Source: a bacterium (lineage in GTDB: Bacteria > UBP7 > UBA6624 > JBBIMK01). Taken from it: DNA of 25,221 bases. Position 1 is the first letter of the stretch. Each line of letters opens with the position of its first letter. Under the pieces are notes generated by a model, which saw nothing but the letters and a program-made list of their open reading frames with translations, did no database searches and was not told the DNA's origin. This document shows positions 47-25,113 of this stretch, piece by piece. The stretch lies in assembly GCA_037444445.1 (NCBI GenBank), contig JBBIMK010000029.1, forward strand, positions 1-25,221. Reading direction: 5' to 3'. The position numbers and the translations under genes are program-made.

Positions 47-219
47 AATCGGCCGGGGGCTTCCCCCCCGTGGGAAAACCTCCATCGCGGGTGGGGGCTG
101 GAAAGATGCCCCGAGCAACCGGGGCAAAAGGAGGAAAAAATAAAAGCGGGAGAAACCGGGAATGGGGGCAGAAGCCCCGCCCGCAGAAGCCCCGACCCGG
201 CGGGGAGGAGAGAAATGCA
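47..219 (+). promoter_or_regulatory. GC-hairpin leader element, copy A, directly 5' of the QueC-like gene
   Basis: The first half (aatcggccggggg..cgtgggaaaacctcc..gcgggtgggggctggaaagatgccccgagc..ccggggcaaaaggagg) matches copies starting at 3408 and 5192. The second half (aaagcgggagaaaccgg..ggggcagaagcccc..cgcccgc, about 142-185) matches 1819-1863. There is a stem CGGGGG 54-59 / CCCCCG 65-70. A further hairpin, ccccg-acccgg-cgggg, abuts the SD GGAGGAG at 204-210. Confidence 0.6.
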
Positions 220-3386: not shown

Positions 3387-3507
3387 TCTATGGAGCAGGT
3401 AAGTCCGAATCGGCCGGGGGCTTTTCGCCCCCGTGGGAAAACCTCCAGAAGCGGGTGGGGGCTGAAAAGATGCCCCGAGCGTAACGCCGGGGCAAAAGGA
3501 GAAAAAA
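3327..3507 (+). repeat. Leader/junction repeat, copy C (3' end of the small membrane gene plus a structured intergenic leader)
   Basis: 3327-3436 matches 5111-5220 with 1 mismatch in 110 nt. Stems are CGGGGGC 3415-3421 / GCCCCCG 3427-3433, GGGGC 3458-3462 / GCCCC 3472-3476, and the mutually exclusive GCCCCG 3472-3477 / CGGGGC 3488-3493. The last stem ends 4 nt before the SD GGAG at 3498-3501. Confidence 0.7.
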
Positions 3508-4075
3508 ATGAAACGAAATGGTCACCTCAAGGGGATAACGGTTCTGGCAGTTACCCTTCTTGTTTCCTGTTCAGGAGGCACATTCAAAAGGGCTTTCGGA
3601 ACCCTGTTTTGTCTAACAATTGACGCTGTTCGTGGTCCCCCTGGACGGCTATTACTATTGCACGAGAACGAATCCCACTAATCCAAACGATAAGGTCACG
3701 GGGGTTGGAAAGGACAAGAACGGGAATAATAAGGTTGATGAATGGGGAGCGGACGGCAAACCCGGGACGGACGACGACGAGGTCTGGTGTGTTCAGGGAG
3801 AAGATAATTTAACGGGTCCTCCCATACCCTGTCCTCCCTGGATTAAGCCCAGAACTGTGGCTCAAGCGGATTGCGTAGAGAACGGGGGGAACTGGTCACA
3901 ATCGGACTCTGTCTATCAATGCACCTCATCGGGCTGGGACCGGGTGTTTTTCTGGGAGGACTTGAACGGGGATGATGGCATCCAGATAGATGAGTACTGG
4001 TGTGAATACAAAGATGCCAACGGCAACCCTGATGGAGTGAAAAAACCCTGTCTGGAAAATGCAGATTGGGAGTAA
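3508..4075 (+). pseudogene. Lipoprotein paralog 2, interrupted by a +1 frame change after the signal peptide
   Basis: The ATG at 3508 encodes MKRNGHLKGITVLAVTLLVSCSGG.., which stops at 3679-3681. The mature Cys-rich domain (DKNGNNKVDEW.., DLNGDDGIQIDEYWCEYKDANGNPDGVKKPC) is open in the next frame from 3617 to 4075. The two frames overlap across a C5 run at 3637-3641. Confidence 0.7.
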
Positions 4076-5170: not shown

Positions 5171-5305
5171 TCTATGGAGCAGGTAGGTCCGAATCGGCCG
5201 GGGGCTTTTCGCCCCCGTGGAAAACCCTCCAGAAGCGGGTGGGGGGCTGGAACATCGCCCCGTAAAGGGTGGTAAAATATCACCCGGGGGCGAAAGGAGG
5301 AAAAA
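5111..5305 (+). repeat. Leader/junction repeat, copy D
   Basis: It is near-identical to 3327-3436 and then diverges, while keeping GGGGC..GCCCC..CGGGGG pairings and the SD AAAGGAGG before the ATG at 5306. Stem: CGGGGGC 5199-5205 / GCCCCCG 5211-5217. Confidence 0.7.
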
Positions 5306-5865
5306 ATGAAACGAAATGGTATAATATCTACGATGGCAGTAATCATTCTTATTCTTTCCTGTAGTGATCCGGGAAGAGATAAGGATTATTACATAAGGAT
5401 TATTACAAAAACAAATGCGTCTATTATGTAATGGATATGTATGAGTGGTACGAGCCGTATCCGCCCTATGACTGGGCGTGTTCTAACGGCCAGAGTCGCT
5501 ATGTTGGTCAGGACAGAAACGGAGACGGTAAATATAAGGCGAAAGGGGATCCCGATGAGCTGGACGAGAGTAAGCGTCCCGAGGTGTGGTGCCAGAACAA
5601 ACAGTCTGACGGCACCTGGAAAAACGGCTCCTGTCCATTTGCAACTATGCAGACCGCAGAAACAGAATGCACTGTCAACGAGGGTTCCTGGTCCCGGTTA
5701 TCTCCCACGCAAGCCTGCTGTGCTTTCCCTGCTGGCGACCTCGCTGTTCTCATCCACGACGATAATGAAGATAGGCTTATCTACAACACCGAGTTCCATT
5801 GCGAGGGACTTAATGAGAACGGAGAACCTGACGGGCAGGAGATAACTTGCCCGGGGGAGGAGTAA
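5306..5865 (+). pseudogene. Lipoprotein paralog 3, split into a signal-peptide ORF and a mature-domain ORF
   Basis: 5306-5431 encodes MKRNGIISTMAVIILILSCSDPG..IM followed by a stop. The stop TAA overlaps the ATG at 5431 (TAATG). 5431-5865 encodes the Cys-rich domain (DRNGDGKYK, DDNEDRLIYNTEFHCEGLNENGEPDGQEITC). The mature frame is already open from 5383 and overlaps an A5 run at 5406-5410. Confidence 0.65.
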
Positions 5866-6561: not shown

Positions 6562-6901
6562 AGAGGCTTTTATATATTCTGTTTGGGCAATTCTCGTGTA
6601 TATTTTCTTCTTTTCCTGGATGAATGCATGGAACCCCCTTGTACAATTTACCTCAGACCCTCTCATCCAGAATACCTGGGAGCCCCTGATGGGCATGCTT
6701 CTGGGCACATTATCCCTGCTGACTTTCACCACCGTGCGACCAGACCTCAAGCCGAGACCTCTTCCCAAAATGTATGTGTACTTAGCCTACATACTGTTTT
6801 GGAGCAGTTTGATAGGGTATTTGTTAATGGTCTTGCTGTTGTTATTCCTGCGCTGGCAACATTCCGCTTTTGGGGGCCTGACCCCAAAAGGTGGTGCTTG
6901 A
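6551..6901 (+). CDS. small three-TM membrane protein (cassette 3)
   Basis: The ORF is hydrophobic and overlaps the stop of the CPBP gene. It occupies the same position as the small membrane genes of cassettes 1 and 2 but has no sequence similarity to them. The start could be 6539 or 6551. Confidence 0.45.
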   Translation: MRYKEAFIYSVWAILVYIFFFSWMNAWNPLVQFTSDPLIQNTWEPLMGMLLGTLSLLTFTTVRPDLKPRPLPKMYVYLAYILFWSSLIGYLLMVLLLLFLRWQHSAFGGLTPKGGA

Positions 6902-6945
6902 CCCCATAAATAATGTCGCTTTTGGGGGCCTGACCCCAAAAGGTG
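6865..6945. terminator. Two copies of a 29-nt hairpin unit between convergent genes (candidate bidirectional terminators)
   Basis: cgcTTTTGGGGgcctgaCCCCAAAAggtg occurs at 6865-6893 and again at 6917-6945. Each copy has a perfect 8-bp stem and a 6-nt loop. They lie between the stop at 6901 (+) and the stop at 6949 (-). There is no U-tract beyond the stem. Confidence 0.45.
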
Positions 6946-7874: not shown

Positions 7875-8534
7875 ATGGGATTCGGGCGAGTGTGGGAAAT
7901 TTATCAGAATGGCGGTCCGGTGATGCATTTCCTTCTCCTCTGCTCCATCATCGGCGTGACGATTATCATTGAACGAGCGAGAAGCCTCTGGAAAGCCACT
8001 GTGAATACGAGAATTCTTATGGACAAGGTCAAGGCGCTGATTCTTCAGCAGAACGAGACCGCATTAAAATTGCTTCTGGAGGAAACGCCCGGACCGGTGT
8101 CTCGTGTCCTTTCCACCGGGTACTCGTTGAAAAATCTCCCGCGGGAGGAAATCGTGGAAGGGGTGAAAGAAACAGCCATCAACGAGGTTGCCCGAATGGA
8201 ACGCGGGTTGCCCACGCTATCCACACTGGTGACCGTTGCCACCCTTCTGGGTCTTCTGGGAACCATCCTGGGCTTAATCCAGATTTACAATGTCATCTCC
8301 GGGGGGAGAATCGGGGATGCAGAAGCCCTGGCGGCCGGGATTGCGCAGGCCCTTATCACCACTGCCACGGGTCTATCTATTGCCATCCCTTTCTTGATTG
8401 CTCATAATATCCTCCGGCAGAAAGTGGACAGCCTGACGGATGAAACGGAGCGAAGCCTTCATGAGTTCATCAATTTCCTTAAACTGGAGGCGATAGGGCA
8501 TGGTGAAAAAGTTCGCGAGACCTGGAGCGAATAG
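7875..8534 (+). CDS. exbB: MotA/TolQ/ExbB proton-channel protein
   Basis: It has the TolQ/ExbB-type layout, with GLLGTILGLI and GIAQALITTATGLSIAIP in the C-terminal helices. The SD GGAAGGAGG precedes the ATG at 7875. ExbD and TonB genes follow. Confidence 0.85.
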   Translation: MGFGRVWEIYQNGGPVMHFLLLCSIIGVTIIIERARSLWKATVNTRILMDKVKALILQQNETALKLLLEETPGPVSRVLSTGYSLKNLPREEIVEGVKETAINEVARMERGLPTLSTLVTVATLLGLLGTILGLIQIYNVISGGRIGDAEALAAGIAQALITTATGLSIAIPFLIAHNILRQKVDSLTDETERSLHEFINFLKLEAIGHGEKVRETWSE

Positions 8535-9530: not shown

Positions 9531-11563
9531 ACTCCTCGCTGTCCTCCCGATGGTTTATCACTGGATTATTTCTATGGCTGGCTATGGGTATTTTTGGGGT
9601 TCTACAGGCCTCAAGCAGTGGAGAGGAAAAAGCCCTTCCGGAGGTTTCTTTTGAAGGCTTGATGACTGTGGAGAATGAATTTGTTCGCCTGCTGGTGAAT
9701 GTGGACACCCTGGATGCGGGGCGATACTCCCTGGAAACCACCGGAGGGGACCCGGCTCGCCCCGATGATGATAAGCAGATTCTCCTTTACGGACATCCTC
9801 CGATGCAGATGACCAGGCCCTGGACTTCTTATACAACGGTTCGGGTGGATGATGTGAATTATGCCTTCGGCGGGGAAACGAAGAGGCGAGCGGGCGCTTC
9901 TACACGCTTCGGCTTCCTTTCCCAGCCCCCCACCCGCCAGGAAGATGGTTCTATCCTCACTACCACCACCTTCGGCGATATACAGGTCACCCAGCGCCTC
10001 TCCCTGGCTCGTAGCCCCACCACTCGCATGCTGGATTCCCTTCAAATTGAATACCGGGTCGTAAACTCCGGAATCCAGCCGCATACCGTGGGCTTACGCA
10101 TCATGCTGGACACGATGCTGGGCACCAACGATGGAGCACCTCTACGAGCAGGGGCGGAATCCATTACCGCAGAAAAATGCTTCTCCGGTGATGCAGTGCC
10201 GGATTTCTTCCAGGCATTTGATTCCCTCTCTGAACCTCATGTAATCGCCCAGGGAACTCTGAGGGGTGAAGGGCTTACCCCCCCGTCTGCTTTGTATATC
10301 GCCAACTGGGGCACCCTCGCGGATGAGCCCTGGGAAATGGAATGCCGGGAGGGCGAAAGCCTGATTCGGAAGGGTGAGGAGGAAGTGGACAGTGCGGTAG
10401 CGCTATATTATAGCCCCCGAACCCTGTCTTCCGGCGAATCGTTCACCATTCGCACCCTGTATGGCCTGGGTGGCATTACCACCACGCCGGGGAAGCTTCT
10501 GCTGGGTATTACCGCACCGATGGAAGTGGCGTTCAAGCCCAGAGGCACCCCTCCCTTCACGGTGGTGGGCTACCTGGAGAATACGGGCGGGTTCCTCTCC
10601 CGCAATACCGCTTTACACCTTCGTCTCCCGCCAGGTTTATCTCTCCTCAGGGGAGAAACGGACATCCCTGTGGGGGATTTCTCCGGCGGGCAGGCCTTCC
10701 AATATGCCTGGCAGGTCGTCCCTGACGGGAAGGCTTTCGGTCTGCAAGACTTTCAGTTGAACGCTACATCAGAAAGTTATGAGGAAAATACAGCCAGAAG
10801 AGGGATTTTCATCCATCCACCGCCCACGCTGAATCTCGTCATCACGGCGCCAGAGCAACTCTCGGTGAAAGATACCACCCTGGAAAATAATCCCTTCGTG
10901 GTGAAAGCCACCCTCACCAACCCCGAAAGTATCCCAGTGAACCACCTCCTTTTGTCCATTTCTCTGCCCGAAGGACTTTCCCTTCCCCCTCCGGAGAAGC
11001 CACAGAAATTCCTGTCGGAATTAGAGCCAGGAGAACTGGCGGAATTCTCCTGGAAGGTGAAAGCCCTGGAAGGGTTAAGCGAGGTGGAATATTCGGTGAC
11101 AGCGGAGTCGGAAGATATTTTTCCAGCCACCGGCAGAAAAAGTATTTTTATCCCTTCCATCTATCCCCGCCTGGCTTTGTCTCCTGCCTCCATCACTTGC
11201 CCGGTGGGTGAATATTTTTACCTGGATTTGCTGATAGAAAAGGTGTCGTCTCTCTCCTCAGGGCAGTTCACCCTCACCTACGACCCTTATCAAATACGCC
11301 TCGTCATGGTCCGCCCCGGAACCCTTTCTTTGAGAAATGGCTTCAAAATGACCTCCCTGCATCGGGAACCCGGCAAACTCTCTTTCTCCTTTCTGATTTC
11401 CCCCGATACCCCGCTGGACACCTGGGAAACGCTCATCCGCCTGTACGCCAGAGCCCTGCAACCCGGCTCCACAAAATTCTCACTGAATTCCTGGGAGTTA
11501 AAGCAAGGAGATACGCTTCTGGACCTGCCCTTTCGCAATGCCAGTATTACGATTTTCAAATGA
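9527..11563 (+). CDS. large secreted/surface protein with Ig-like middle modules and a C-terminal cohesin-like module
   Basis: The signal-like N-terminus is RWFITGLFLWLAMGIFGVLQASS. The C-terminus, ..ITCPVGEYFYLDLLIEKVSSLSSGQFTLTYDPYQIRLV.., fits the pattern I associate with cohesin domains. The start is either GTG 9527 (GTGA overlap with the tonB stop) or GTG 9497. Confidence 0.7.
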   Translation: MNSSLSSRWFITGLFLWLAMGIFGVLQASSSGEEKALPEVSFEGLMTVENEFVRLLVNVDTLDAGRYSLETTGGDPARPDDDKQILLYGHPPMQMTRPWTSYTTVRVDDVNYAFGGETKRRAGASTRFGFLSQPPTRQEDGSILTTTTFGDIQVTQRLSLARSPTTRMLDSLQIEYRVVNSGIQPHTVGLRIMLDTMLGTNDGAPLRAGAESITAEKCFSGDAVPDFFQAFDSLSEPHVIAQGTLRGEGLTPPSALYIANWGTLADEPWEMECREGESLIRKGEEEVDSAVALYYSPRTLSSGESFTIRTLYGLGGITTTPGKLLLGITAPMEVAFKPRGTPPFTVVGYLENTGGFLSRNTALHLRLPPGLSLLRGETDIPVGDFSGGQAFQYAWQVVPDGKAFGLQDFQLNATSESYEENTARRGIFIHPPPTLNLVITAPEQLSVKDTTLENNPFVVKATLTNPESIPVNHLLLSISLPEGLSLPPPEKPQKFLSELEPGELAEFSWKVKALEGLSEVEYSVTAESEDIFPATGRKSIFIPSIYPRLALSPASITCPVGEYFYLDLLIEKVSSLSSGQFTLTYDPYQIRLVMVRPGTLSLRNGFKMTSLHREPGKLSFSFLISPDTPLDTWETLIRLYARALQPGSTKFSLNSWELKQGDTLLDLPFRNASITIFK

Positions 11564-15166: not shown

Positions 15167-16579
15167 GTGTCTGAAAGGATGAATAGAATGGAAAAAATGA
15201 AGGAGGCGGAGAGCAGGATGCGGCTGGAGAGATTGTGGGAATCCACTCTGCGATATTTGTTGAGGAAGAAGAGCGACCCCATTTTACGCTCTTTTTTGCA
15301 GGAAGCCCGGTTGGAGCAGAGGGAGAATCGCTTCATCCTTCAGGTGCCCACTCAACTCATCCGGGATACTTTGAAAAATCGCTATCCTGGAGTGATTGAA
15401 GAAGCCTTGACGCATGTGTTGAAGGATTCTGGCGGAGATGAAGAGATTGGATGGGAAAAAAAGGAGGTGGTGCTGGAACTGGAGATTCACCGGGGACCCA
15501 CCGGGATGGTTGAACAGCCCGGGCTTTTCCCGAAGTCAAAAGGCGACTCTCGCCTCTACCCCGCCCTGAATCCCAACTTCACCTTTGAAACCTTCGTGGT
15601 GGGGAAGAACAATCATATGACCCACGCCGCTGCATTAGCCGTCTCCCAGAACCCCGGCTGTGTGTATAACCCTCTGTTTATCTACGGTGGTGTGGGGCTG
15701 GGAAAAACCCACCTGTTACATTCCATCGGGCATTACATCCTGGAGAATGCTCCCGCACTCCTGATTCAATACACCCCCTCCGAGGAATTTACCCATGCTT
15801 TCATCACTTCTCTTCAGGAGGGGAAAATGAAGGAATTTCGGCGGACTTTTCGCTCCTGCGATGTTCTCCTGATGGACGATGTCCAGTTCTTAGCCCGGAA
15901 GGTGGAAACTCAGGAGGCGCTGTTTCATATTTTTAATGCCCTGCACGACTCTAACCGTCAGATTGTGCTGACCAGCGACCGCTCACCACGAGAACTGTCC
16001 GACATTGAAGGACGCCTCGTCAGCCGATTCACCTCCGGGCTGATTACCGACATCCAGCCTCCGGATTATGAAACCCGCCTCGCTATCTTGAAGCGGAAGG
16101 CGGATTCCCTTTCTGCTCCCCTCACCGATGAGGTGGCTGAATTCCTATCAGAGCAGGATGTGGCAAACATCCGGGAACTGGAATCCATCCTCCACCGGGT
16201 TGTCTCTTTTTCCACCCTGGAACTGCTCCCTCTCAATCTGGATACCGCCCGGGAAGCCTTGAAGGGATTCTTTGAGAAGAAAGAGAAGCCCTGCACCTTT
16301 GAGAAGATACTCCAATTTGTGGCGGAGGATTTCGGGCTGTCGGAAGGGGATTTGCTGTCAAAGAAGCGGACGCAGGAAATCGTCCTCGCTCGCCAGATTA
16401 TCATCTATATCGCCCGCATCCTTACCCATCTTTCCCTCTCCGACATCGGTAGAAGGCTGGGCGGAAAAGACCATACCACCGTCCTTCACGCATTCTCCAG
16501 AATTTCTGCACTGATGAAAGAAGACCCTGCCCTGGAACGCCGTATCCTCACCCTGATCGACGAAATCAAATCCCAATAG
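15167..16579 (+). CDS. dnaA: chromosomal replication initiator protein DnaA
   Basis: It has Walker A GGVGLGKTHLLH, Walker B LLMDDVQFL, sensor TSDR, and the C-terminal DNA-binding helix GGKDHTTVLHA. The real start is probably an internal ATG (15179-15218). The ATG at 15218 follows the SD GAAGGAGG at 15199-15206. Confidence 0.95.
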   Translation: MSERMNRMEKMKEAESRMRLERLWESTLRYLLRKKSDPILRSFLQEARLEQRENRFILQVPTQLIRDTLKNRYPGVIEEALTHVLKDSGGDEEIGWEKKEVVLELEIHRGPTGMVEQPGLFPKSKGDSRLYPALNPNFTFETFVVGKNNHMTHAAALAVSQNPGCVYNPLFIYGGVGLGKTHLLHSIGHYILENAPALLIQYTPSEEFTHAFITSLQEGKMKEFRRTFRSCDVLLMDDVQFLARKVETQEALFHIFNALHDSNRQIVLTSDRSPRELSDIEGRLVSRFTSGLITDIQPPDYETRLAILKRKADSLSAPLTDEVAEFLSEQDVANIRELESILHRVVSFSTLELLPLNLDTAREALKGFFEKKEKPCTFEKILQFVAEDFGLSEGDLLSKKRTQEIVLARQIIIYIARILTHLSLSDIGRRLGGKDHTTVLHAFSRISALMKEDPALERRILTLIDEIKSQ

Positions 16580-16701
16580 CCTTCCTGCGGAATCAAGCCA
16601 CAGGAAAGTTCGCCTGAAGCCCGGGCAGAAGCAGAGTATCCCACGCCCATCAGGTAGTATCTGCCCCGAAGGGTGTAAAATGGAAGATGGGGGTGCGAGC
16701 A

Positions 16702-17358
16702 ATGAAATGGCATCGGCTGAAGGTAGCCCGGGGTATTCTGCTTTTCTCTCTCATCAGCGCCGGCGTTTCCCCACTACTGCCGGAAGATGTTCAATCTGCC
16801 CTGAATAAAAAAGTGAGCCTCCACTATCAGGAGGAGCCAGTGGGATACATTCTCAATGACATCAGCGCTCAAATTGGGGGAAAAGTTAGCCTCTCTACGG
16901 AGGTTTTTGAGGAAGTCGCTTCGGAAAAAATCACCCTCGTGTATTCGGATAAGGTGCCCGCCCATCAAACCTTCACTGCTCTGACGGCACTCTTCGGGCT
17001 GGAGTGGGAAGCCACTCAAGAAGCCTCCAGTGATAAAAAGAGTCTCATCCCGCTTATCCAGGTGTGGAAGAAGAAGGGAGTCCGTGTATCCTCCGAAGTC
17101 TTAAAGAAGGAATATGTGCTCAAGAGCGAGGGTCCCACGCCACTTCTGGATGTGGTGGTTCGGCTGGCGGACGATGTAGGCATCGGGGTGGCTTTCGCCC
17201 CTGGCGCCTACACCGCCTTCAAAGGCACCTATGTTACCCTCGCTATCCCCTCTACCCCGCTGGAGCAGTTACTCAAACTATTAGAGATTCGTGCGGGCAT
17301 CCGTGTAGCCCTTCTGCCCGTGGGCGACACCTACCTTCTTTATATTGACCGCCCGTAG
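16702..17358 (+). CDS. secreted hypothetical protein
   Basis: It has the signal-like N-terminus MKWHRLKVARGILLFSLISAGV and no motif I recognise. Its composition is like the core genome. Confidence 0.55.
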   Translation: MKWHRLKVARGILLFSLISAGVSPLLPEDVQSALNKKVSLHYQEEPVGYILNDISAQIGGKVSLSTEVFEEVASEKITLVYSDKVPAHQTFTALTALFGLEWEATQEASSDKKSLIPLIQVWKKKGVRVSSEVLKKEYVLKSEGPTPLLDVVVRLADDVGIGVAFAPGAYTAFKGTYVTLAIPSTPLEQLLKLLEIRAGIRVALLPVGDTYLLYIDRP

Positions 17359-17607
17359 CCCCCTGAATTATACGACGAAGGAGGTCAACGAACAGCAAAG
17401 TGGATTTTTTTTTCATTCTGTGGTATCAAGATAAAAGGTTAAGGATTGGATGAGCATAAAAATTACTACCCCCCAACCTCCTCCCACGCAAGGGAGGGAA
17501 ATCCAGAAATGATGATAGAATATAAACTTAGAATGACGGGTGAAGGGGAAGAGAAAGAAATTTTAGGAATGGGGGCCGGGTGAAAAGAAATGGCGAAACG
17601 GTGCCTA

Positions 17608-17679
17608 ACACAGCATAAAAGGTTCGCCCCTTACAGCACTTCCCCCCATTTTTGCTTCGCAAATACTTCTTTTATGCTG
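17608..17679. repeat. Island-flanking repeat R1 (left copy), with 11-bp terminal inverted repeats
   Basis: acacagcataaaaggttcgcCccttacagcacttccccccatttttgcttcgcaaatacttcttttatgcTg matches 25146-25216 with 2 mismatches. CAGCATAAAAG at 17611-17621 is the reverse complement of CTTTTATGCTG at 17669-17679. Confidence 0.8.
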
Positions 17680-17725
17680 GAAAACGTTATATGAAATGGC
17701 GATTGAGAGAAAATGGGGGTGAAAT

Positions 17726-18187
17726 ATGAGGCGAAGAGCCGATATTTATCTTGAAAGTTCCGTTGTAAGTATGTATTATGAAGAGGAGGTTCTTCCTCTG
17801 ATGGAGGTAACACGCGAATTTTGGCATACTGTCCTTCCCAAAATAAATCCATTTATTTCAGATATGGTAATTATCGAAATCAGGGCGACGAGAGACCTTA
17901 ACTTACGAAGTAAACTTCTTGAACTTGTTTCGGGATTTAGAATATTACCTCTGACAAGTGAGGCACGAGAATTGGCAGGGATATATCTAAAACATAGACG
18001 ATTACCCGAGCCAGACGCTATTCATATAGCTATTGCATCATTAGAGGGTATGGACCTGCTGGTAACATGGAACCTGCGACATTTAGTAAAACCTGGCACA
18101 CAGTCTATGGTCCGTCGAGTAAATATGGATTTAGGGTTGCCTATTCCACAGATGGTAACACCTGAAGATTTCTTTGAGGAGGTGTAA
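17726..18187 (+). CDS. PIN-domain (VapC-like) protein
   Basis: The pattern is PIN-like: IYLESSVV (first strand), IIEIRAT, PEPDAIHIAIAS, LLVTWNLRHL. The first and last acidic positions appear as E and N. The SD GGGGGTGA precedes the ATG. Confidence 0.55.
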   Translation: MRRRADIYLESSVVSMYYEEEVLPLMEVTREFWHTVLPKINPFISDMVIIEIRATRDLNLRSKLLELVSGFRILPLTSEARELAGIYLKHRRLPEPDAIHIAIASLEGMDLLVTWNLRHLVKPGTQSMVRRVNMDLGLPIPQMVTPEDFFEEV

Positions 18188-18189
18188 TT

Positions 18190-18390
18190 ATGCCAAAACG
18201 AATACCTACTGAAGAAGAAAAGAGAAAAGCTCTTGAAAGAGCAAAGCGCGAATTTCCTGGTAATAAGGTATTACAAGAACTTCATTACATTCGATATCTC
18301 CTTGAAATTGAGTGGAAAGATATGACAATTGAGGAAATTCAAGAAGAGATTCGTAAGGCAAAGCAAGAGCTGGGATTGACAGAAAAATGA
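18190..18390 (+). CDS. small charged protein, putative cognate partner (antitoxin-like) of the PIN protein
   Basis: It starts 2 nt after the PIN stop, behind the SD GAGGAGGTG. It is about 50% identical by eye to the paralog at 24904-25113 (EEEK..EFP..K.LQE.HY.RY.LE.EW..MT.EEI). Confidence 0.6.
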   Translation: MPKRIPTEEEKRKALERAKREFPGNKVLQELHYIRYLLEIEWKDMTIEEIQEEIRKAKQELGLTEK

Positions 18391-21300
18391 TACCCCCAGA
18401 AGTTCATCTTGCGCGCTTAAAAATTCATAAGGAAACAAAAGGAATGAGCGAGGAAGGAACTATGGCAAATAATAAAGTGGAAAAAATTAACACTGAAGAA
18501 ATAACAAAAGAAATTAAGCAGTGTGCTTCACAATCTGCAAACGAAGAAGAACTCAAAATTAAAGTTGAATATCTTCTACGGACACGTGTTCTTGATAGTT
18601 GGCAGATTCCTTGGGCTTCTTATGAACACAGAACCTTGGTATCCGGTGTGCGTAAAGATGCCCTGTATGGAACAGTAATAATTGAATATAAAGCTCCATG
18701 CAAACTTTCAGATAAAAATCAGTTTGAAAACTTTAAAGCAAAAGTAAAACAGTATATCGCAGAAGAAGCAAGAGACGAACGGTTTTATAATAGGTATTTT
18801 GGTGTCCTTCTTGATGGAGAAAAAATAGCATTTATCAGATTTAGAAAGGGAGAATGGGAAGAACCAGAAAAACCCCTTGATATAAATCGATACACAATTC
18901 TGAGGCTGTTAGAGGCTATAAGGGGTTTAACAAGAAAACCCGTTGATGCTGAGTTCTTATTACAAGACTTTGGTCCGAAGAGTACTATTAGTAAAGCCTG
19001 CATTATCTCTTTATATCAAGCATTAAGAAAATCTAAATCTCCACGCACCAAAATGCTTTTTGAAGACTGGCGCACTGTCTTTTCACAGATATGTGCATAT
19101 TCCACTGAGAAACTGAAAGGGCTTATTAAATACTATGAAATAGAAGAGGAAAGCCCTGATGTTGAAAAAATCTTGTTCTCCGTGCATACCTATTATACTC
19201 TGCTTATGAAACTTTTAACCTCGGAGATAGTTACTCTCTTTGCCGACAGTGTGATAGGCTCGTATCTGAAAAAGGTAGAGGAAGCATACTACCGAGGTTC
19301 TCATGAGATGCGTCAAGAATTAGGAGAGTTAGAAGAGGGAGGTCTATTCTATACCCTCGGCATAAAGAATTTCCTTGAGGCAGATTATTTCGCCTGGTAT
19401 CTGGATGATTGGAATGATGAAATAGCGCATTCAATCTCTGAAATTGTGAAAAAACTAATGGACTATGAACCGGCAACAGTTGAACTGAATCCTGAACGAG
19501 TTAAAGACCTTTTCAAAAGGCTTTACCAGAATCTCGTCCCAAGAGATGTGCGTCACAAATTGGGTGAATACTTTACTCCTGACTGGTTAGCAGATTTGCT
19601 TTTAGATGAGATAGAATATGATGGTGATCCGGAGAAGAGTGTTCTTGACCCTGCCTGTGGTTCAGGGACATTCCTTGTATTGGCAATTAAAAAAATTAAA
19701 GATTACGCAGAGAAACATTTTCTTGATAAAAGAGATATCCTTAAAAAGATAATTGAGAGAATAAAAGGCATTGATTTAAATCCACTTGCAGTTCTTGCTG
19801 CAAAAGCAAATTATCTAATTGCGTTATCTGATATGTTAAGATATAGACCAAAAGAAGGCATTGAGATTCCAGTTTATCTTGCTGATTCAATTTTTGTTGG
19901 AAGAAAAGAAGCAGGTCAGTCTGAACTTGAGGTTCAAAGGAGAATAGTATTTGATAAAAGCGCTCAAAAGGAATGGGAAGCATATATAACTACTAATGAA
20001 GGGCAATTCTGGATGCCTATGGAAGTAATTGATAAAGGAAGGCTTTCGAGTGTCCTTGATTTGATTAATGGATGTATAAGAAATAAGTATTCTGAAAATG
20101 AATTTGAAAAAAGGCTCAAAAATACTTTTCATTTTCGACCTTATGCGTATGGGGCACTTAAAAGACTTTATAAAAAGCTTATTGGTTTAGAGCGATATAA
20201 TAAAAACAAGATATGGACAAGATTGCTAAAAAATAGATTTGCACCTCTTTTTATTGGGAAATTTGACTTTGTAGTCGGAAATCCTCCCTGGATAAACTGG
20301 GAGAATTTACCAGAGTACCATAGGAACCAAACCAAACCTTTGTGGGATTATTACGGATTATTAGAAAAGACAAAGGGTAAGGGTTTAGGAAAAGTAAAAA
20401 GAGACCTGGCAATGCTTTTTGTTGCAAGATGTTTTGATAGATATGTAAAAGAGAATGGGATATTGAGTTTTCTTGTGCCCTGGACATTATTCAAAACACA
20501 GGCAGGCGCCGGATTTAGAAAGCTTCTATCAAAGGGGTTTACACACAGGTGGGGCAAAACTAAAGAAGTTCCAATTGAGACGATCAAAGTTCATGACCTT
20601 GTTCAACTTTATCCATTTGAAGGCGCCGTAAATAGAACAGCGCTGATTGCTATTAAAAAAGGGGAGACCAAGTTTCCAATTCCTTGTCAGATGTGGTCAA
20701 ATCCAAGAAAGGAAAATATTCCGATGGAAGAGGAACTTGAAAATGTAAGGAAGAGAACAAAACAGAATGAGATGATACTTACCCCAATTGTAGAAAAAGA
20801 CACAATGGCTCCATGGATGATAATATCAGAGAAAGCATATAAGGCGGTTAAAAAGGTTATAGGTGAATCGGAATATGAAGCATATGAAGGCGTTAATACC
20901 GCTTTGAATGGTGTTTACTGGCTTGAGATTTTAAGAAAGCACCCAGATGGTCTGCTCGTTAAGAATACGCAACTTGCCGGATATAAGAAAAAGGTAAAGG
21001 AGGTTACAGAGATTTTAGAGCCTGATTTGATTTATCCGCTTATCAGGGGAGAGGATGTAAAGAAGTGGCATGGAGAACCAAGCAGGTATATTTTAGTTCC
21101 TCATAACCCATCAACTGGCAAAGCAATTGATGAATCCGCAATTAAAATTAACTACCCAAAAACATACAAATTTCTTTTCGGCCTCAAAGAAGAACTCGCA
21201 AATCGTTCAATTCATAAATTGTGGGGTAAAAATAGTCCATTCTATGCAGTTTATGATATTGGAAATTATACCTTTGCACCTTACAAAGTTATGTGGAAAA

Positions 21301-22178
21301 GGATAGCGGGCGGTATTACTGGTAAAGCTGTTAGTTTTGCATCATGCGTAATAACAACTGTAAAAGATAAATTCTTTGAAGTAGAAAAACCCGTTATTCC
21401 AAATGATTCCTTAATTTTAATTCCTTTGAACAGCAAAGATGAGGCATTCTATATTTGTAGTGTTTTGAATTCATCACCAGTGCTATTTGCCATCGCATCT
21501 TATACTTATGAATTAAGAATGGAAACCCATATTACCAAGTATATTAATATCCCAAGATTTAAGTCACAAAAACCTTTATGTTCAGAAATTTCGCAATTAT
21601 CCATGCAAGCCCATGAACTTGCAAAAGAAGGTAAAACCGAAGAAATAAAAGAAATTGAGGAACAAATTGACCAGAAGGTTGCAGAACTTTATGGTATAAC
21701 CGATGAGGAACTCGCGGAGATTAAGAAGTGTTTACAGTTATTGAAAGAGGGCGAAGTTGAGACTGAAGAGGAAACGGAAGAAGAAGTTATTCCAGAAGCA
21801 CCAAAGGGGATAGGAATTACAGTCAATCCCCTTCTGATTTATGAGGATATAGCAGAACAAATCACTCTGGAAATTCAAAATAATTTTGACGACACGGTTG
21901 AAGAAATTAGTGTTGAAATTCTATTAACCGGCAATAAAATTGCAAAACAATCTCTTAATAGATTAAAATTTAAGAGTAAGTCCCTATTGAATTTTATCTT
22001 ACCTCCATTAAAGGGCGGTGAATACAAATTGAAAATGAATTTAACTTACAAGTTAAATGAAGAAAAACAAGTAATGCAGGTAGAGAAAAATCTGTTTGTG
22101 CAAAGGGAAAAAGCCAAAGAATCTCCAGGAAGCGGTTGGGATGAATCTTTTGAAAGATTTTTAGAGGAGGAAAAATGA
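18387..22178 (+). CDS. Type IIG/IIL-like fusion: N-terminal PD-ExK nuclease motif, gamma-class N6-adenine DNA methyltransferase, specificity region and a C-terminal extension
   Basis: The nuclease motif is D-x8-E-x-K, KDALYGTVIIEYK (GAT 18657, GAATATAAA 18684-18692). It also has LGEYFTPDWLADLL, motif I VLDPACGSGTFLV (about 19641-19680), motif IV FVVGNPPW (NPPW 20280-20291), and AELYGITDEELAEI near the end of the methyltransferase/specificity part. The start may be 18387 (ATGA overlap with the upstream gene), 18444 or 18462. Confidence 0.88.
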   Translation: MIPPEVHLARLKIHKETKGMSEEGTMANNKVEKINTEEITKEIKQCASQSANEEELKIKVEYLLRTRVLDSWQIPWASYEHRTLVSGVRKDALYGTVIIEYKAPCKLSDKNQFENFKAKVKQYIAEEARDERFYNRYFGVLLDGEKIAFIRFRKGEWEEPEKPLDINRYTILRLLEAIRGLTRKPVDAEFLLQDFGPKSTISKACIISLYQALRKSKSPRTKMLFEDWRTVFSQICAYSTEKLKGLIKYYEIEEESPDVEKILFSVHTYYTLLMKLLTSEIVTLFADSVIGSYLKKVEEAYYRGSHEMRQELGELEEGGLFYTLGIKNFLEADYFAWYLDDWNDEIAHSISEIVKKLMDYEPATVELNPERVKDLFKRLYQNLVPRDVRHKLGEYFTPDWLADLLLDEIEYDGDPEKSVLDPACGSGTFLVLAIKKIKDYAEKHFLDKRDILKKIIERIKGIDLNPLAVLAAKANYLIALSDMLRYRPKEGIEIPVYLADSIFVGRKEAGQSELEVQRRIVFDKSAQKEWEAYITTNEGQFWMPMEVIDKGRLSSVLDLINGCIRNKYSENEFEKRLKNTFHFRPYAYGALKRLYKKLIGLERYNKNKIWTRLLKNRFAPLFIGKFDFVVGNPPWINWENLPEYHRNQTKPLWDYYGLLEKTKGKGLGKVKRDLAMLFVARCFDRYVKENGILSFLVPWTLFKTQAGAGFRKLLSKGFTHRWGKTKEVPIETIKVHDLVQLYPFEGAVNRTALIAIKKGETKFPIPCQMWSNPRKENIPMEEELENVRKRTKQNEMILTPIVEKDTMAPWMIISEKAYKAVKKVIGESEYEAYEGVNTALNGVYWLEILRKHPDGLLVKNTQLAGYKKKVKEVTEILEPDLIYPLIRGEDVKKWHGEPSRYILVPHNPSTGKAIDESAIKINYPKTYKFLFGLKEELANRSIHKLWGKNSPFYAVYDIGNYTFAPYKVMWKRIAGGITGKAVSFASCVITTVKDKFFEVEKPVIPNDSLILIPLNSKDEAFYICSVLNSSPVLFAIASYTYELRMETHITKYINIPRFKSQKPLCSEISQLSMQAHELAKEGKTEEIKEIEEQIDQKVAELYGITDEELAEIKKCLQLLKEGEVETEEETEEEVIPEAPKGIGITVNPLLIYEDIAEQITLEIQNNFDDTVEEISVEILLTGNKIAKQSLNRLKFKSKSLLNFILPPLKGGEYKLKMNLTYKLNEEKQVMQVEKNLFVQREKAKESPGSGWDESFERFLEEEK
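18425..18501 (+). repeat. 77-bp perfect direct repeat R2 (left copy), carrying the SD and first codons of the methyltransferase gene
   Basis: tcataaggaaacaaaaggaatgagcgaggaaggaactatggcaaataataaagtggaaaaaattaacactgaagaaa is identical to 24764-24840. Confidence 0.95.
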
Positions 22179-22975
22179 CACAAGCACTTGCAATACCGTC
22201 ATTCCCTACCCTTATTATATTGCCTAAATATAGGGGGGATGCAGAACCCCTTGTTGTTGAAAGAAAAATAAGCAAGCAAATAGAAAACATAATCAATTCC
22301 TTGATTAAATCACGCAAACCCCTTGCAAAAAATATTCACAATTTGCTGCCACAGATATTTGATATCAGGTTCAAATTTATAAAATGGGCGATTGAAAAAA
22401 ATATTGATTTACAACTTATTTCAGAATCGGTTTTGAGTGAATTAGATAAGGTGGCCAGTCAATTAAAACAACCTGATGAAGTTGTTCTCTTTGAAAATGC
22501 AAAGTTCGCATTGAAAACCTTCGCTAAGGTTCTTAACTCTATTACCGCAGAGATTCCATCGTGGACAGAACAAATAAGAGAAGACCTTGAAAAGGGAATT
22601 ACTATTTCTTATGAGCAATTGAAATTTGCAATAGAGTTAGAGCCACTTCCTGAACCTGCAAAGTCAATTATCATAAGACTCATAGATGTCTCATTGTCCC
22701 TTGAATTTGCTTTAATCCTTTCCGCCTTATATATATTCAAAGAACTCAGACTTTCAAAGGCAAGAATAATTGAACTTTCAAAACTTCTAAGAGACTGGAC
22801 ACAAGAATATGGGGCAATGGCTATGAAATTACAACTTTGGAAATCTAAAATGAAGAAAGTCCCCCAGGAGTCTCTCCAATTAACGGCCGAGGAAATTGAA
22901 GAAGAACAAAAATTGGCAGATGCTGGTATATCTTATTATCTGAACCAGATTATTCAGGAAGAGGAAAATGAATAG
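22175..22975 (+). CDS. hypothetical helical protein with an acidic C-terminal tail
   Basis: It overlaps the stop of the upstream gene (ATGA) and overlaps the downstream MazF-like start by 8 nt. I recognise no motif. The C-terminus is ..AEEIEEEQKLADAGISYYLNQIIQEEENE. Confidence 0.7.
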   Translation: MTQALAIPSFPTLIILPKYRGDAEPLVVERKISKQIENIINSLIKSRKPLAKNIHNLLPQIFDIRFKFIKWAIEKNIDLQLISESVLSELDKVASQLKQPDEVVLFENAKFALKTFAKVLNSITAEIPSWTEQIREDLEKGITISYEQLKFAIELEPLPEPAKSIIIRLIDVSLSLEFALILSALYIFKELRLSKARIIELSKLLRDWTQEYGAMAMKLQLWKSKMKKVPQESLQLTAEEIEEEQKLADAGISYYLNQIIQEEENE

Positions 22976-23306
22976 TTATCAACCTGGCGATATAGTTGTA
23001 GTAGACTTGGGCGAAACCATCGGACATGAACAAGAAGGTAGAAGACCTGTGGTGGTCGTTTCTCAAATATTAATTGGAAATCTAATTGTAATTATTCCAT
23101 TAACAAGAAAAGAGAAGTCCTGGTGGACAGTAGTGCGGATTAAAGAAGGAGAGGGTGGAGTAAAGATGGATTCATTTGCGTTGTGTCACCAAATAAGGTC
23201 TATCTCCTTGAAACGAGTTATTGAAAAATGGAGTCGTATAGAATCGGATACTTTAGCCCGCATAAAAACAGTCCTTGCTAACATCTTTGAATGGAGCCCA
23301 CAATGA
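22968..23306 (+). CDS. mazF: MazF/PemK-family endoribonuclease toxin
   Basis: It contains PGDIVVVDLGETIGHEQEGRRPVVVVSQ, VIIPLT and DSFALCHQIRSISLKRV. These fit the PemK/MazF pattern (GDI..VD..P..G.EQ.G.RP..V.S ... PIT ... Q.R..S..R). Confidence 0.88.
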   Translation: MNSYQPGDIVVVDLGETIGHEQEGRRPVVVVSQILIGNLIVIIPLTRKEKSWWTVVRIKEGEGGVKMDSFALCHQIRSISLKRVIEKWSRIESDTLARIKTVLANIFEWSPQ

Positions 23307-24727
23307 ATCAAGATGAATTAAATGCAAAACTAAAATATTACTTTAGCGATTGCGTTGTTAATAAGAAACTCTCTGAAAGACAGGAAATAATTAGGATTCC
23401 AAGGTTTGTTTCTGAGAACCTTTTAACAAAAATTTCTGTTTATGAAAATGACAAAGAACTCTTTTCTGAAAAACTTGCCAAAATGATAGAGTTTATCACT
23501 AATCACTTTCCTGAACCAAGGGATAAAGATAAAATCCTGAATAAACTACTCGAAAAACAAGAATATGAAATTATAGACGAATTCCGGGTTGAAGTGGATA
23601 TAAAAAATGGCATCAAAAAGGCTCACATCCCTTCCCTGAACATCAGAAACGCAATGATCCTTGATTCCATAATTAATGAAAATGAAAATCTGCTTTCTAC
23701 TGGTATCTGGGGATTTGCAAAACTGAGATATACTGACCCAGTATGCGATGAAAATGAAAACCCTCTTACCGTTCCTGTTCTGATAGAAAGTTTTAAACCC
23801 TTTCAGGTTTCCAATATTGATATGAAAGATTTTATTACAAAGAGAGAGCATTTTACCCTTGATGAATGGATTGATGTAATCATTAATACCATAGGTTTGA
23901 ATCCAAGCATCTTTGATAAGGAGCAAAAGTTAATATTAATTTCCCGCTTCATTCCGCTCGTTGAAAACAATGTAAGTATGCTTGAATTTGGCCCTCGTGC
24001 AACAGGAAAAACATATTTTTACAGGAATATATCCTTTTATACCAGGATAATTTCAGGGGGTCATTTAAGCCCTGCGGTTCTGTTTTATAATATTGCCACA
24101 AAAACTGTAGGAGAAATAGGAATAAAAGATTGTATGGTATTTGATGAAATAGCCAAAATCAGATTCATAAATGCTGACGAAATGATGGGAAAACTGAAGG
24201 ATTACATGGAGAGTTCTCATTTTGAAAGAGGTCCTAAAAAAACAACCTCTACATGCTCAATGGTATTTATGGGGAATGTGGATGTTAAAGGATTTATTCC
24301 TGTGGAAGATTTTACTTATATATTACCAGAATTTATGAGAGACAGCGCTTTTGTGGATAGGATTAACGGTATAATACTAGGATGGAAGTTGCCAAAAATT
24401 AAGAAACCTGAAATCCATCTTTCTCAAAATTATGGATTTTCTTCTGACTATTTTTCTGAAATCCTTCACGAATTAAGAAAAATAGACTTCCAAACAGAAT
24501 TAAAAAGGATTGTGGATTTGGAAAATGTAACCATAAGGGACTATAAGAGCGTTTTTAAATTGTTAAGTGGCATGATGAAAATCTTATTTCCTCACAAAAA
24601 GTGGGAAGTGCCTGAGTTTGAGAGAATAATAACCTTTTGCATAGGATATCGCGAGATGGTCTGTGAATGGCTGCATAAAATGGCACCTGGGGAGTTTGAA
24701 AGGAAGAGAATTGTGTTTAAAGTATGA
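23303..24727 (+). CDS. BrxL-like AAA+ ATPase (short form, no room for a Lon-like C-terminal domain)
   Basis: It has Walker A FGPRATGKTYFY (23990-24013) and Walker B CMVFDEIA (GATGAA 24143-24148). The N-terminus LNAKLKYYFSDCVVNKKL and the core ..GPR.TGK..Y......ISGG......LF.N......G.....D...FDE.. resemble BrxL as I remember it. The ATG at 23303 overlaps the MazF stop (ATGA); an alternative ATG is at 23291. Confidence 0.7.
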   Translation: MNQDELNAKLKYYFSDCVVNKKLSERQEIIRIPRFVSENLLTKISVYENDKELFSEKLAKMIEFITNHFPEPRDKDKILNKLLEKQEYEIIDEFRVEVDIKNGIKKAHIPSLNIRNAMILDSIINENENLLSTGIWGFAKLRYTDPVCDENENPLTVPVLIESFKPFQVSNIDMKDFITKREHFTLDEWIDVIINTIGLNPSIFDKEQKLILISRFIPLVENNVSMLEFGPRATGKTYFYRNISFYTRIISGGHLSPAVLFYNIATKTVGEIGIKDCMVFDEIAKIRFINADEMMGKLKDYMESSHFERGPKKTTSTCSMVFMGNVDVKGFIPVEDFTYILPEFMRDSAFVDRINGIILGWKLPKIKKPEIHLSQNYGFSSDYFSEILHELRKIDFQTELKRIVDLENVTIRDYKSVFKLLSGMMKILFPHKKWEVPEFERIITFCIGYREMVCEWLHKMAPGEFERKRIVFKV

Positions 24728-24763
24728 GTATATTGCATATCGCCACCAAGCAAAACAGTCGTC

Positions 24764-24840
24764 TCATAAGGAAACAAAAGGAATGAGCGAGGAAGGAACT
24801 ATGGCAAATAATAAAGTGGAAAAAATTAACACTGAAGAAA
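24764..24840 (+). repeat. 77-bp perfect direct repeat R2 (right copy)
   Basis: It is identical to 18425-18501. It begins 37 nt after the BrxL-like stop. Confidence 0.95.
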
Positions 24841-24902
24841 AGTTACCAATTCCCACAATTTTGACACCTGAAAAATTTTTTGAATTCAAGGAGGAGGTGT
24901 AA
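24841..24902 (+). pseudogene. 3' remnant of a second PIN gene, fused in frame to the R2-encoded start (chimeric micro-ORF 24783-24902)
   Basis: KLPIPTILTPEKFFEFKEEV-stop parallels the C-terminus of the intact PIN protein, GLPIPQMVTPEDFFEEV-stop. The same SD/stop/start geometry follows (ggaggaggtgtaatATG). Confidence 0.7.
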
Positions 24903-24903
24903 T

Positions 24904-25113
24904 ATGCCCAGAAGAGAAGTTTCAGAGGAGGAAAAAGAAAAAATACGCAAACGTGTTGAGATAGAATTTCCTGAGGATAAGTGCTTGCAGGAAATTCACT
25001 ACTATAGATATATTTTAGAGTTAGAATGGGAAACTATGACGCCAGAGGAAATATTGATGGATATAAAAGAAGGCGCTCGCCGGGTGAAAGAGGGAATGAA
25101 AGAAGAACATTGA
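24904..25113 (+). CDS. paralog of the small PIN-partner protein
   Basis: MPRREVSEEEKEKIRKRVEIEFPEDKCLQEIHYYRYILELEWETMTPEEI.. aligns with the product of 18190-18390. The SD is AAGGAGGAGGTG. Confidence 0.7.
   Translation: MPRREVSEEEKEKIRKRVEIEFPEDKCLQEIHYYRYILELEWETMTPEEILMDIKEGARRVKEGMKEEH

Follow-up and report, generated by a model that had tools for sequence, protein, structure and literature searches.

Perfect 77-bp direct repeats around a type IIG/BrxL-like operon lying between two cassette-like PIN modules

On contig JBBIMK010000029.1 of an uncultivated bacterium (NCBI GenBank assembly GCA_037444445.1), genes for a type IIG restriction-modification (RM) enzyme, a 266-aa protein, a MazF-type toxin and a BrxL-like ATPase lie between two direct repeats of 77 bp, here called R77. 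The question raised by this locus is what the repeat is, how it came to stand at both ends of the operon, and what it says about the mobility of the genes in between. The window that was analysed is the whole contig, 25,221 bp long. On either side of the repeats it carries modules made of a gene for a PIN-domain protein and a small downstream gene, with PIN-A and small-A on the left and the tail of a second PIN gene (PIN-B) with its partner small-B on the right. The account favoured here, with a confidence moderately above even, is that a non-cassette operon came to lie between two cassettes in a recent event, through junctions that are not site-specific and with its own start copied again at its far end. 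R77 is regarded as a real, recent and element-derived scar of a rearrangement, whose implications for mobility are plausible.

The 77-bp repeat and its source

Repeat finding and MAFFT alignment recovered two copies that are identical at 77 of 77 positions and start 6339 bp apart, and they bracket exactly four overlapping genes, as originally predicted. The identity stops abruptly at both edges, and the adjoining 100 nt of one copy have no relation on either side to those of the other. A 32-nt core of R77, searched with up to three mismatches, occurs at exactly two sites in the contig and in none of the dinucleotide shuffles (0/100), a count that covers this one whole NCBI contig and not the remainder of the source genome. 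The same core is absent from the JGI metagenome contigs and from IMG/VR. By our own arithmetic, about 1e-38 exact repeated 77-mers would be expected by chance in 25 kb. On these figures a chance match is effectively refuted, and a common dispersed repeat retains next to no probability.

Each copy consists of a 37-nt leader followed by the first 13 codons of the IIG gene, or 19 codons when counted from the first ATG. In the left copy the two ATGs stand at 18444 and 18462, and GAGGAAGG precedes the second one; the Shine-Dalgarno (SD) sequence, the two ATGs and the 13 to 19 methyltransferase codons that had been placed in the repeat are all present. The N-termini of homologous enzymes align with the second ATG, reading MFNNKSETIDTKE in the related metagenomic contig L001 and MANNKVEKINTEE here, while others begin with MKEEILLEKIDTNK and similar sequences. 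Furthermore, 8 of the 13 residues encoded by R77 are common to the L001 enzyme, which is 72% identical overall. Because the homologous N-termini align through R77, the repeat belongs to the element and not to the target. Judged from these alignments, R77 is the native 5' end of the type IIG gene, with the left copy in its native place and the right copy displaced, and it is neither a target duplication nor a recombinase site. Folding of both R77 regions gave nothing common to the two copies.

Insertion of RM units with long target duplication has been described (Nobusato et al. 2000; Furuta, Abe & Kobayashi 2010, PMC2853133), and type IIG/IIS cases are known among them, for example one with 47/47 repeats in Thermus (PMC2853133). 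The present locus resembles these insertions in every formal respect, being a 6339-bp RM unit, well within their limit of 20 kb, without a transposase or integrase and with direct repeats of tens of bp that are near-identical there and 77/77 here. It departs from them in that the repeat comes from the RM gene itself, that is, from the element and not from target DNA, and in that the other ends are plain illegitimate junctions inside a cassette array.

That the 77 bp pre-existed at the site, and were duplicated or used as homology when the RM unit entered, is accordingly a very doubtful history. It would suit the form of the published criteria (RM genes, an insert of <20 kb, direct repeats of >30 bp and no mobility genes; PMC2853133), and direct repeats, 72/74 identical, stand at the ends of L002, a related IIG-BrxL island, as well. 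However, a repeat made of the IIG leader and the first 13 codons, 8 of whose residues are common to L001, is element-derived; a copy already present at the site would imply an earlier IIG gene that had been fused to PIN-B and left this scar; and two further IIG-BrxL loci with long flanks, L005 and L174, have no such repeats.

attC-like sites, cassettes and junctions

Two attC-like sites lie 7.5 kb apart on the strand of the operon (Table 1). The left one scores 62.1 bits with the covariance model R1 on the + strand and 11 bits on the - strand, being itself 1 of the 21 sequences from which R1 was built. The right one scores 46 bits over model positions 1-74 with a truncated 3' end (35 bits with filters off), was also found as a repeat family (D3), and has its R' box beyond the end of the contig. 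R1 has no other site in the window, the two starting at 17603 and 25141 with none between 17692 and 25141. Set against the integron core-site definition, with its crossover between G and TT (G/TT; PMC8876359), the R''/R' boxes follow the pattern RYYYAAC/GTTRRRY, the left R' box GTTATAT having one deviation. The core sites of the family read ATATAAC or CGCTAAC at one end and GTTAGGC or GTTATGC at the other, and GTTATAT is also among its R' forms. PIN cassettes of many loci start at the same GTTATATGAAATGGCGG after differing attC sequences, as is expected from crossover at G/TT, and a conserved CCGCCACTTCAT, ATAAC and an attC come, in that order, after the small gene in many of them.

The inner stem of these sites shows compensatory changes at 8 of its 12 pairs among the 21 sites. 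In an alignment of 45 sites, which was fitted to R1 and thereby favours structure, 93.5% of the cells are paired, whereas shuffles reach 75% and slid partners no more than 45%, and the cells changed on both sides number 121, compared with 43 in shuffles. Compensatory changes are seen at 9 of the 12 stem pairs in this comparison of the family. By this comparison the stem, an imperfect inverted repeat, is kept as structure and not as sequence. Across the PIN loci R1 has 49 sites, 48 of them on the strand of the PIN gene and some in arrays of three to five (L012, L036, L065, L069, L072 and L075), and it has none in the IIG loci.

The scanned ORFs of the window contain no recombinase domain, and no integrase was seen within 17.6 kb upstream or in the related loci. 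A tblastn search with an approximate IntI1 query returned only a distant tyrosine recombinase fragment, by a distant PIN gene in L090. The cluster is thus one of attC sites without a known integrase, at best of the kind called CALIN. An IMG/VR match to the 3' motif of the cassettes was rejected as a chance hit in an RNA-virus contig.

Defence systems are known in integron cassettes (BRiCs, bioRxiv 10.1101/2024.07.02.601719), and by their sites the two PIN modules are themselves integron-type gene cassettes, a context absent from the original prediction, as are the truncation of PIN-B and the loss of the left attC. They share with the cassettes of integrons and CALINs, including those with toxin-antitoxin and phage-defence genes, the closure of each module by an attC-type site (an R'' box like RYYYAAC, a covarying L''/L' stem and an R' box like GTTRRRY), the co-oriented arrays in related contigs and the presence of defence genes inside the array. 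In contrast, the present operon is 6.3 kb long with four genes and no attC of its own, and its entry went by a route other than attC and deleted an attC. We know of no described case of a 6.3-kb operon without attC embedded by internal attC deletion, a statement made without a systematic search.

The modules are self-contained. In about 60 of 80 metagenomic loci a PIN gene of 153-157 aa is directly followed by a gene of 64-71 aa, and neither IIG, BrxL nor MazF stands nearby in any of the 80. The PIN protein scores above the Pfam cutoff, and its family ends in LPVPQIVTPEDFFEEV, the left-hand member having the signature LPIPQMVTPEDFFEEV before its stop codon. The small partner belongs to no Pfam or NCBIfam family, and the fold predicted for small-B, three helices at a pLDDT of 91, has no neighbour among PDB structures. 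PIN-A and the intact PIN-B of a related contig are 48% identical. The original prediction had the PIN and small-protein paralogs just outside the repeats about half identical; this stands for small-A and small-B (53%), whereas of a second PIN gene only the last 20 codons are present beyond the repeat on the right.

Tandem A-type and B-type pairs without the operon occur in L015, the A module alone in L016, and small-A followed by a 24-codon PIN-B tail and small-B in L059; because of these arrangements an A-B tandem is a credible ancestor of the present locus. Truncated or frameshifted PIN genes beside an intact small gene recur as well (L059 at 10686-10840, L071, L072, L082 and L086-L088), and the PIN tails retained in such cassettes hold the SD of the small gene. 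A truncated PIN gene with an intact partner would fit, without proving it, the decay of a toxin with retention of its antidote in a toxin/antitoxin pair.

Three junctions separate the operon from the modules. On the left, cassette A breaks off at 18407/18408 (J1), with the R'' box and the rest of its attC gone. On the right, the spacer after BrxL meets R77 at 24763/24764 (J2), and R77 meets the PIN-B tail at 24840/24841 (J3). Logan contig L011, with an intact 157-aa PIN-B and small-B, is homologous to the window from position 24840, the last base of R77, at 309 of 323 positions (95.7%). Of the 157 PIN-B codons 137 are lost; the reading frame is preserved across the join, where one A is common to both sides, a microhomology of 1 nt. 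None of the three junctions has more than this (0-1 nt), a G/TT core or inverted terminal repeats.

Two other derivations were tried and rejected. Integrase-type crossovers did not make the junctions, neither J1 nor J3 lying at a G/TT core. The 36-nt spacer after BrxL is not the 5' leader of cassette B, its match of 11/14 having p ~0.03 for one of three targets, compared with 95.7% in the tail. The operon, which is not a cassette itself, replaces one attC and 137 PIN-B codons. The 7.5 kb from PIN-A to small-B are now a single unit between two attC-like sites, with none inside.

The right copy of R77 also opens a short chimeric ORF, MANNKVEKINTEE joined to KLPIPTILTPEKFFEFKEEV, which is in frame with the PIN-B tail and stops 1 nt before the small-B ATG. 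The suggestion that this copy re-supplies translation-initiation signals downstream is right in that it starts this ORF of 33 to 39 codons; however, the PIN-B tail still holds a strong SD for small-B (GGAGGAGG, 24890-24897), and the signals of the repeat are unneeded. Small-B would be transcribed by read-through from the operon and translated from that SD, and the initiation signals of R77 may help its translation. A comparable coupling is that of ORF-11 in attI1 of class 1 integrons (PMC8876359), where a short upstream ORF likewise ends beside the start of the next cassette gene and could help its translation. The present ORF differs in being a by-product of duplication and gene truncation, in front of a gene with its own SD.

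It is highly improbable that the 77-nt copy was kept by selection, whether as a ribosome-binding site and start for small-B or as a means to make the operon deletable, an on/off switch. The in-frame fusion that ends 1 nt before small-B would fit selection, yet a join is in frame one time in three by chance. The precedent of ORF-11 as a booster of a cassette gene (PMC8876359) meets the SD that small-B already has. Other loci likewise have a truncated PIN gene beside an intact small one, but the truncated cassettes of L059, L072 and L086-L088 keep their small genes without any such patch. As for a switch, the deletion would be irreversible without re-integration of a circle.

Formation, age and expected fate

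Under the favoured account, a recent entry with the operon's own start recopied, the junctions would have been made by illegitimate and not by site-specific recombination, along one of three routes. In the first (a), the operon would have undergone tandem duplication, followed by deletion of the second copy from IIG codon 14 into PIN-B. In the second (b), the insert would have been a copy longer than one unit, made from a circular or concatemeric form, and in the third (c), template switching during repair synthesis would have copied the 77 nt. The locus looks like the remnant of a tandem duplication in that the head of the unit is repeated right after its tail, the copies are perfect and the junctions have minimal microhomology. 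It differs in that 77 nt alone are left of the putative second copy, and a longer-than-unit or templated insertion would have the same look.

The event would be recent, because the R77 copies differ at 0 of 77 positions. The original prediction of a recent duplication agrees with the comparison inside the window, where the attC-like pair differs at 3 of 76 positions and identity between the flanking paralogs is about 50%. With 4% divergence, an unchanged stretch of 77 nt would have a probability of ~0.04 by our own arithmetic, and the contrast between 0/77 and 3/76 favours a recent event or homogenisation.

Several points weigh against the favoured account. It offers no source for the 17 nt at 18408-18424, between J1 and the left R77. 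Neither the window nor the fetched loci gave an integron integrase, so that the word integron is owed to the sites. Routes a, b and c fit the sequence equally well. Neither an unoccupied site nor a close relative was found: no related genome shows the empty locus, look-ups of window proteins for exact matches returned none, the IIG protein has no relative in GTDB genomes or viral contigs, and the best DnaA relatives in GTDB genomes (Acidobacteriota-like) are only 44-48% identical, for which reason the host is placed in a deep, poorly sampled lineage. Finally, the path from the left flank through R77, the operon and R77 to the right flank shares its junctions with an empty chromosome (left flank, R77, right flank) accompanied by a circular or tandem operon, and 77 is a common largest k-mer of the SPAdes assembler, an uncomfortable coincidence.

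Identity that the reads lack cannot come from a de Bruijn path, so the 77-nt sequence is truly shared, even though 77 is a widely used largest assembly k-mer in SPAdes. An origin of the 77-nt length as an assembler artefact was also rejected, as an exact-k artefact, the overlap of a circular contig, sits at contig ends and not inside.

The coincidence also bears on a mixed population, in which an empty chromosome (small-A, R77, PIN-B tail, small-B) and a 6339-bp circular or tandem operon were threaded into one contig. This is unlikely, and it would be the more interesting outcome, meaning that the operon is actively excising or amplifying. All four junctions that it needs are present in the contig, which is of the kind that short reads give in a metagenome-assembled genome and itself ends inside a repeat, and the length of R77 equals a k in wide general use. 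Against this, the operon has no replication, integrase or relaxase gene in PADLOC, Pfam and NCBIfam scans; the 6.3-kb unit has no blastn match among plasmids or phages and no similarity to viral contigs; and the empty form would still need a chromosomal 77-bp fragment of the IIG gene, most simply a product of the integrated form. Because that fragment is best explained by the integrated form, a mixed population would add to the favoured account more than replace it.

The favoured account has consequences for the fate of the operon. RecA-type recombination between the copies would delete exactly 6339 bp and leave small-A, one repeat, the PIN-B tail and small-B. Such precise loss, which the original prediction had foreseen and for which 77 bp are long enough, would be expected at a low rate, because 77 bp exceed the minimal length for efficient RecA-dependent recombination, which Shen and Huang are said to have put in 1986 at about 25 bp in E. 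coli. The embedded MazF may penalise loss if the 266-aa protein is its antidote. Gain by recombination at the repeat would need a circle. An integron integrase could in principle move the whole 7.5-kb attC-bounded unit as a single cassette.

If the arrangement is real, a defence operon would have been caught just after entering a cassette array in a deep-branching uncultivated bacterium, and there would be a concrete way for a multigene system without its own attC to end up in an attC-bounded unit, the origin of cassettes being an acknowledged open question (10.1101/2024.07.02.601719). It would also provide a built-in route to the precise loss of a costly defence system, with MazF placed where it could oppose that loss, and would extend RM islands with long direct repeats to repeats of element instead of target origin. 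None of these findings overturns current views.

A broader idea is quite unlikely at present, namely that IIG-BrxL islands spread as longer-than-unit circular or concatemeric copies and leave duplications of about 75 bp of their own ends (77 here; 72/74 in the unrelated L002 island). Such a donor-end duplication would be the counterpart of the long target duplications of RM units, and landing between cassettes with removal of an attC would turn the island into one large attC-bounded cassette. If true, it would illustrate one route by which large non-cassette operons are recruited into integrons.

The operon, its relatives and the wider contig

The features of the locus are collected in Table 1.

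Table 1. Features of the region between the two attC-like sites, in order along the window
Feature	Position	Strand	Basis
attC-like site before cassette A	17603..17692	+	R'' GCCTAAC; L''/L' stem CAGCATAAAAG / CTTTTATGCTG; R' GTTATAT; covariance model R1
PIN-A, intact 153-aa PIN-domain protein, putative toxin	17726..18187	+	Pfam PF01850, E=1.1e-6; weak VapC match 7by2
small-A, 66-aa conserved PIN partner	18190..18390	+	small gene directly downstream of PIN in ~60/80 related loci
cassette-A 3' remnant (TACCCCCAGAAGTTCAT)	18391..18407	+	conserved 3' end present to TTCAT; following attC missing
17-nt stretch (CTTGCGCGCTTAAAAAT) between J1 and left R77	18408..18424	+	matches neither the cassette consensus nor the post-BrxL spacer
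R77, left copy in native context (leader, SD, first 13 IIG codons)	18425..18501	+	repeat alignment; N-terminus conserved in homologues
type IIG RM enzyme, 1238-1263 aa	18462..22178 (annotated from ATG 18387)	+	PADLOC, Pfam
266-aa protein	22175..22975	+	overlaps IIG stop and MazF start; homologue before PemK in L001
MazF/PemK-type toxin	22968..23306	+	Pfam PF02452, E=5.7e-22; NCBIfam MazF match below cutoff
short BrxL-like ATPase, 478 aa (N domain and ATPase, without Lon protease domain)	23291..24727	+	NCBIfam, Pfam, PADLOC
36-nt spacer after BrxL	24728..24763	+	no homology to sequence upstream of left R77; no terminator-like site
R77, right copy displaced from native context	24764..24840	+	77/77 identical to left copy
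chimeric ORF	24801..24902 (33 codons; 39 from ATG 24783)	+	translation; junction alignment
PIN-B tail, codons 138-157 and stop, with the small-B SD	24841..24902	+	homology to the intact 157-aa PIN-B of L011
small-B, 69-aa partner, left without its PIN gene	24904..25113	+	~96% identity with its L011 counterpart
attC-like site of cassette B, cut by contig end	25141..25221	+	R'' ATATCAC; 96% identical to left site over 76 nt

The large enzyme matches REase_MTase_IIG of PADLOC (E=0, residues 38-1119 of 1263 covered) and the Pfam families Eco57I, N6_Mtase and MmeI_Mtase, and a nuclease-like motif of the form D...EYK was read in it by eye. By its sequence it has the make-up that defines a type IIG enzyme, one polypeptide that joins a nuclease region at the N-terminus to a gamma-class N6-adenine methyltransferase and a region for target recognition. 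Its homologues number 4402, most of them in archaeal or thermophile metagenomes. The stop codon of small-A overlaps an ATG (ATGA, 18387-18390) that is in frame with the IIG gene, giving the annotated ORF of 1263 aa. In L002-L007 an ATGA overlap of this kind links the IIG start to an unrelated small upstream gene (of HxlR type, or of 41-65 aa).

The 266-aa protein has no match in Pfam, NCBIfam or PADLOC, and it may be the partner of MazF, because its gene overlaps both the IIG stop and the MazF start. The BrxL-like ATPase scores 491 bits with NCBIfam TIGR02688 (cutoff 329) and matches Pfam BrxL_N and BrxL_ATPase as well as BrxL of PADLOC. A scan for promoters and terminators gave sites no more numerous than in shuffles, with none between BrxL and small-B.

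The operon shares with bacteriophage exclusion (BREX) systems an ATPase of the BrxL family, above the TIGR02688 cutoff, and a large adenine methyltransferase with weak similarity to PglX (best PglX model 56.8 bits, cutoff 400). It differs from them in having no PglZ, BrxC, BrxA or BrxB hits, and in that the methyltransferase is a full-length type IIG enzyme. As PglZ and BrxC are missing from it, the operon is, by its gene content, not a BREX system, and an IIG/short-BrxL operon of this make-up may be an unclassified defence architecture. A search of plasmids for BrxL found only ordinary BREX or other operons, not the present one.

Metagenomic contigs L001-L007 and L174, mostly archaeal or thermophilic, have the same combination of an IIG gene, middle genes that vary, and a short BrxL. 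The middle genes encode the 266-aa protein and MazF in the present operon and in that of L001; L174 has a gene for an AIPR protein instead, and L005 one for a 264-aa protein that is weakly proteasome-like. The repeats around the L002 island, whose IIG enzyme is 57% identical, lie at 8052-8124 and 16842-16915; a gene fragment adjoining BrxL has the downstream copy as its 3' end, and the upstream copy is an orphan.

In the wider contig the GC content drops from 52% to 36% near 17500, and the low-GC island begins about 1 kb downstream of dnaA (window 15167-17600). The contig has no tRNA and no Rfam match, and the scanned ORFs contain no integrase or transposase domain. Far to the left, four tandem paralogous ORFs about 1.7 kb apart have conserved upstream regions (window 47-168, 1816-1960, 3408-3576 and 5192-5340). 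They encode a lipoprotein-like signal peptide (MKRNGIISTMAV and further on LLVSCSG), a GC-rich hairpin precedes each, and in their 5' regions two of them match at every position for 40 nt. Next comes a direct repeat of 29 nt, also perfect, at 6865-6893 and 6917-6945, 52 nt apart, with a palindrome in each copy (TTTTGGGGGCC and GACCCCAAAA as its arms); it lies between convergent genes, one of them for a multihaem cytochrome, and probably represents twin terminators.

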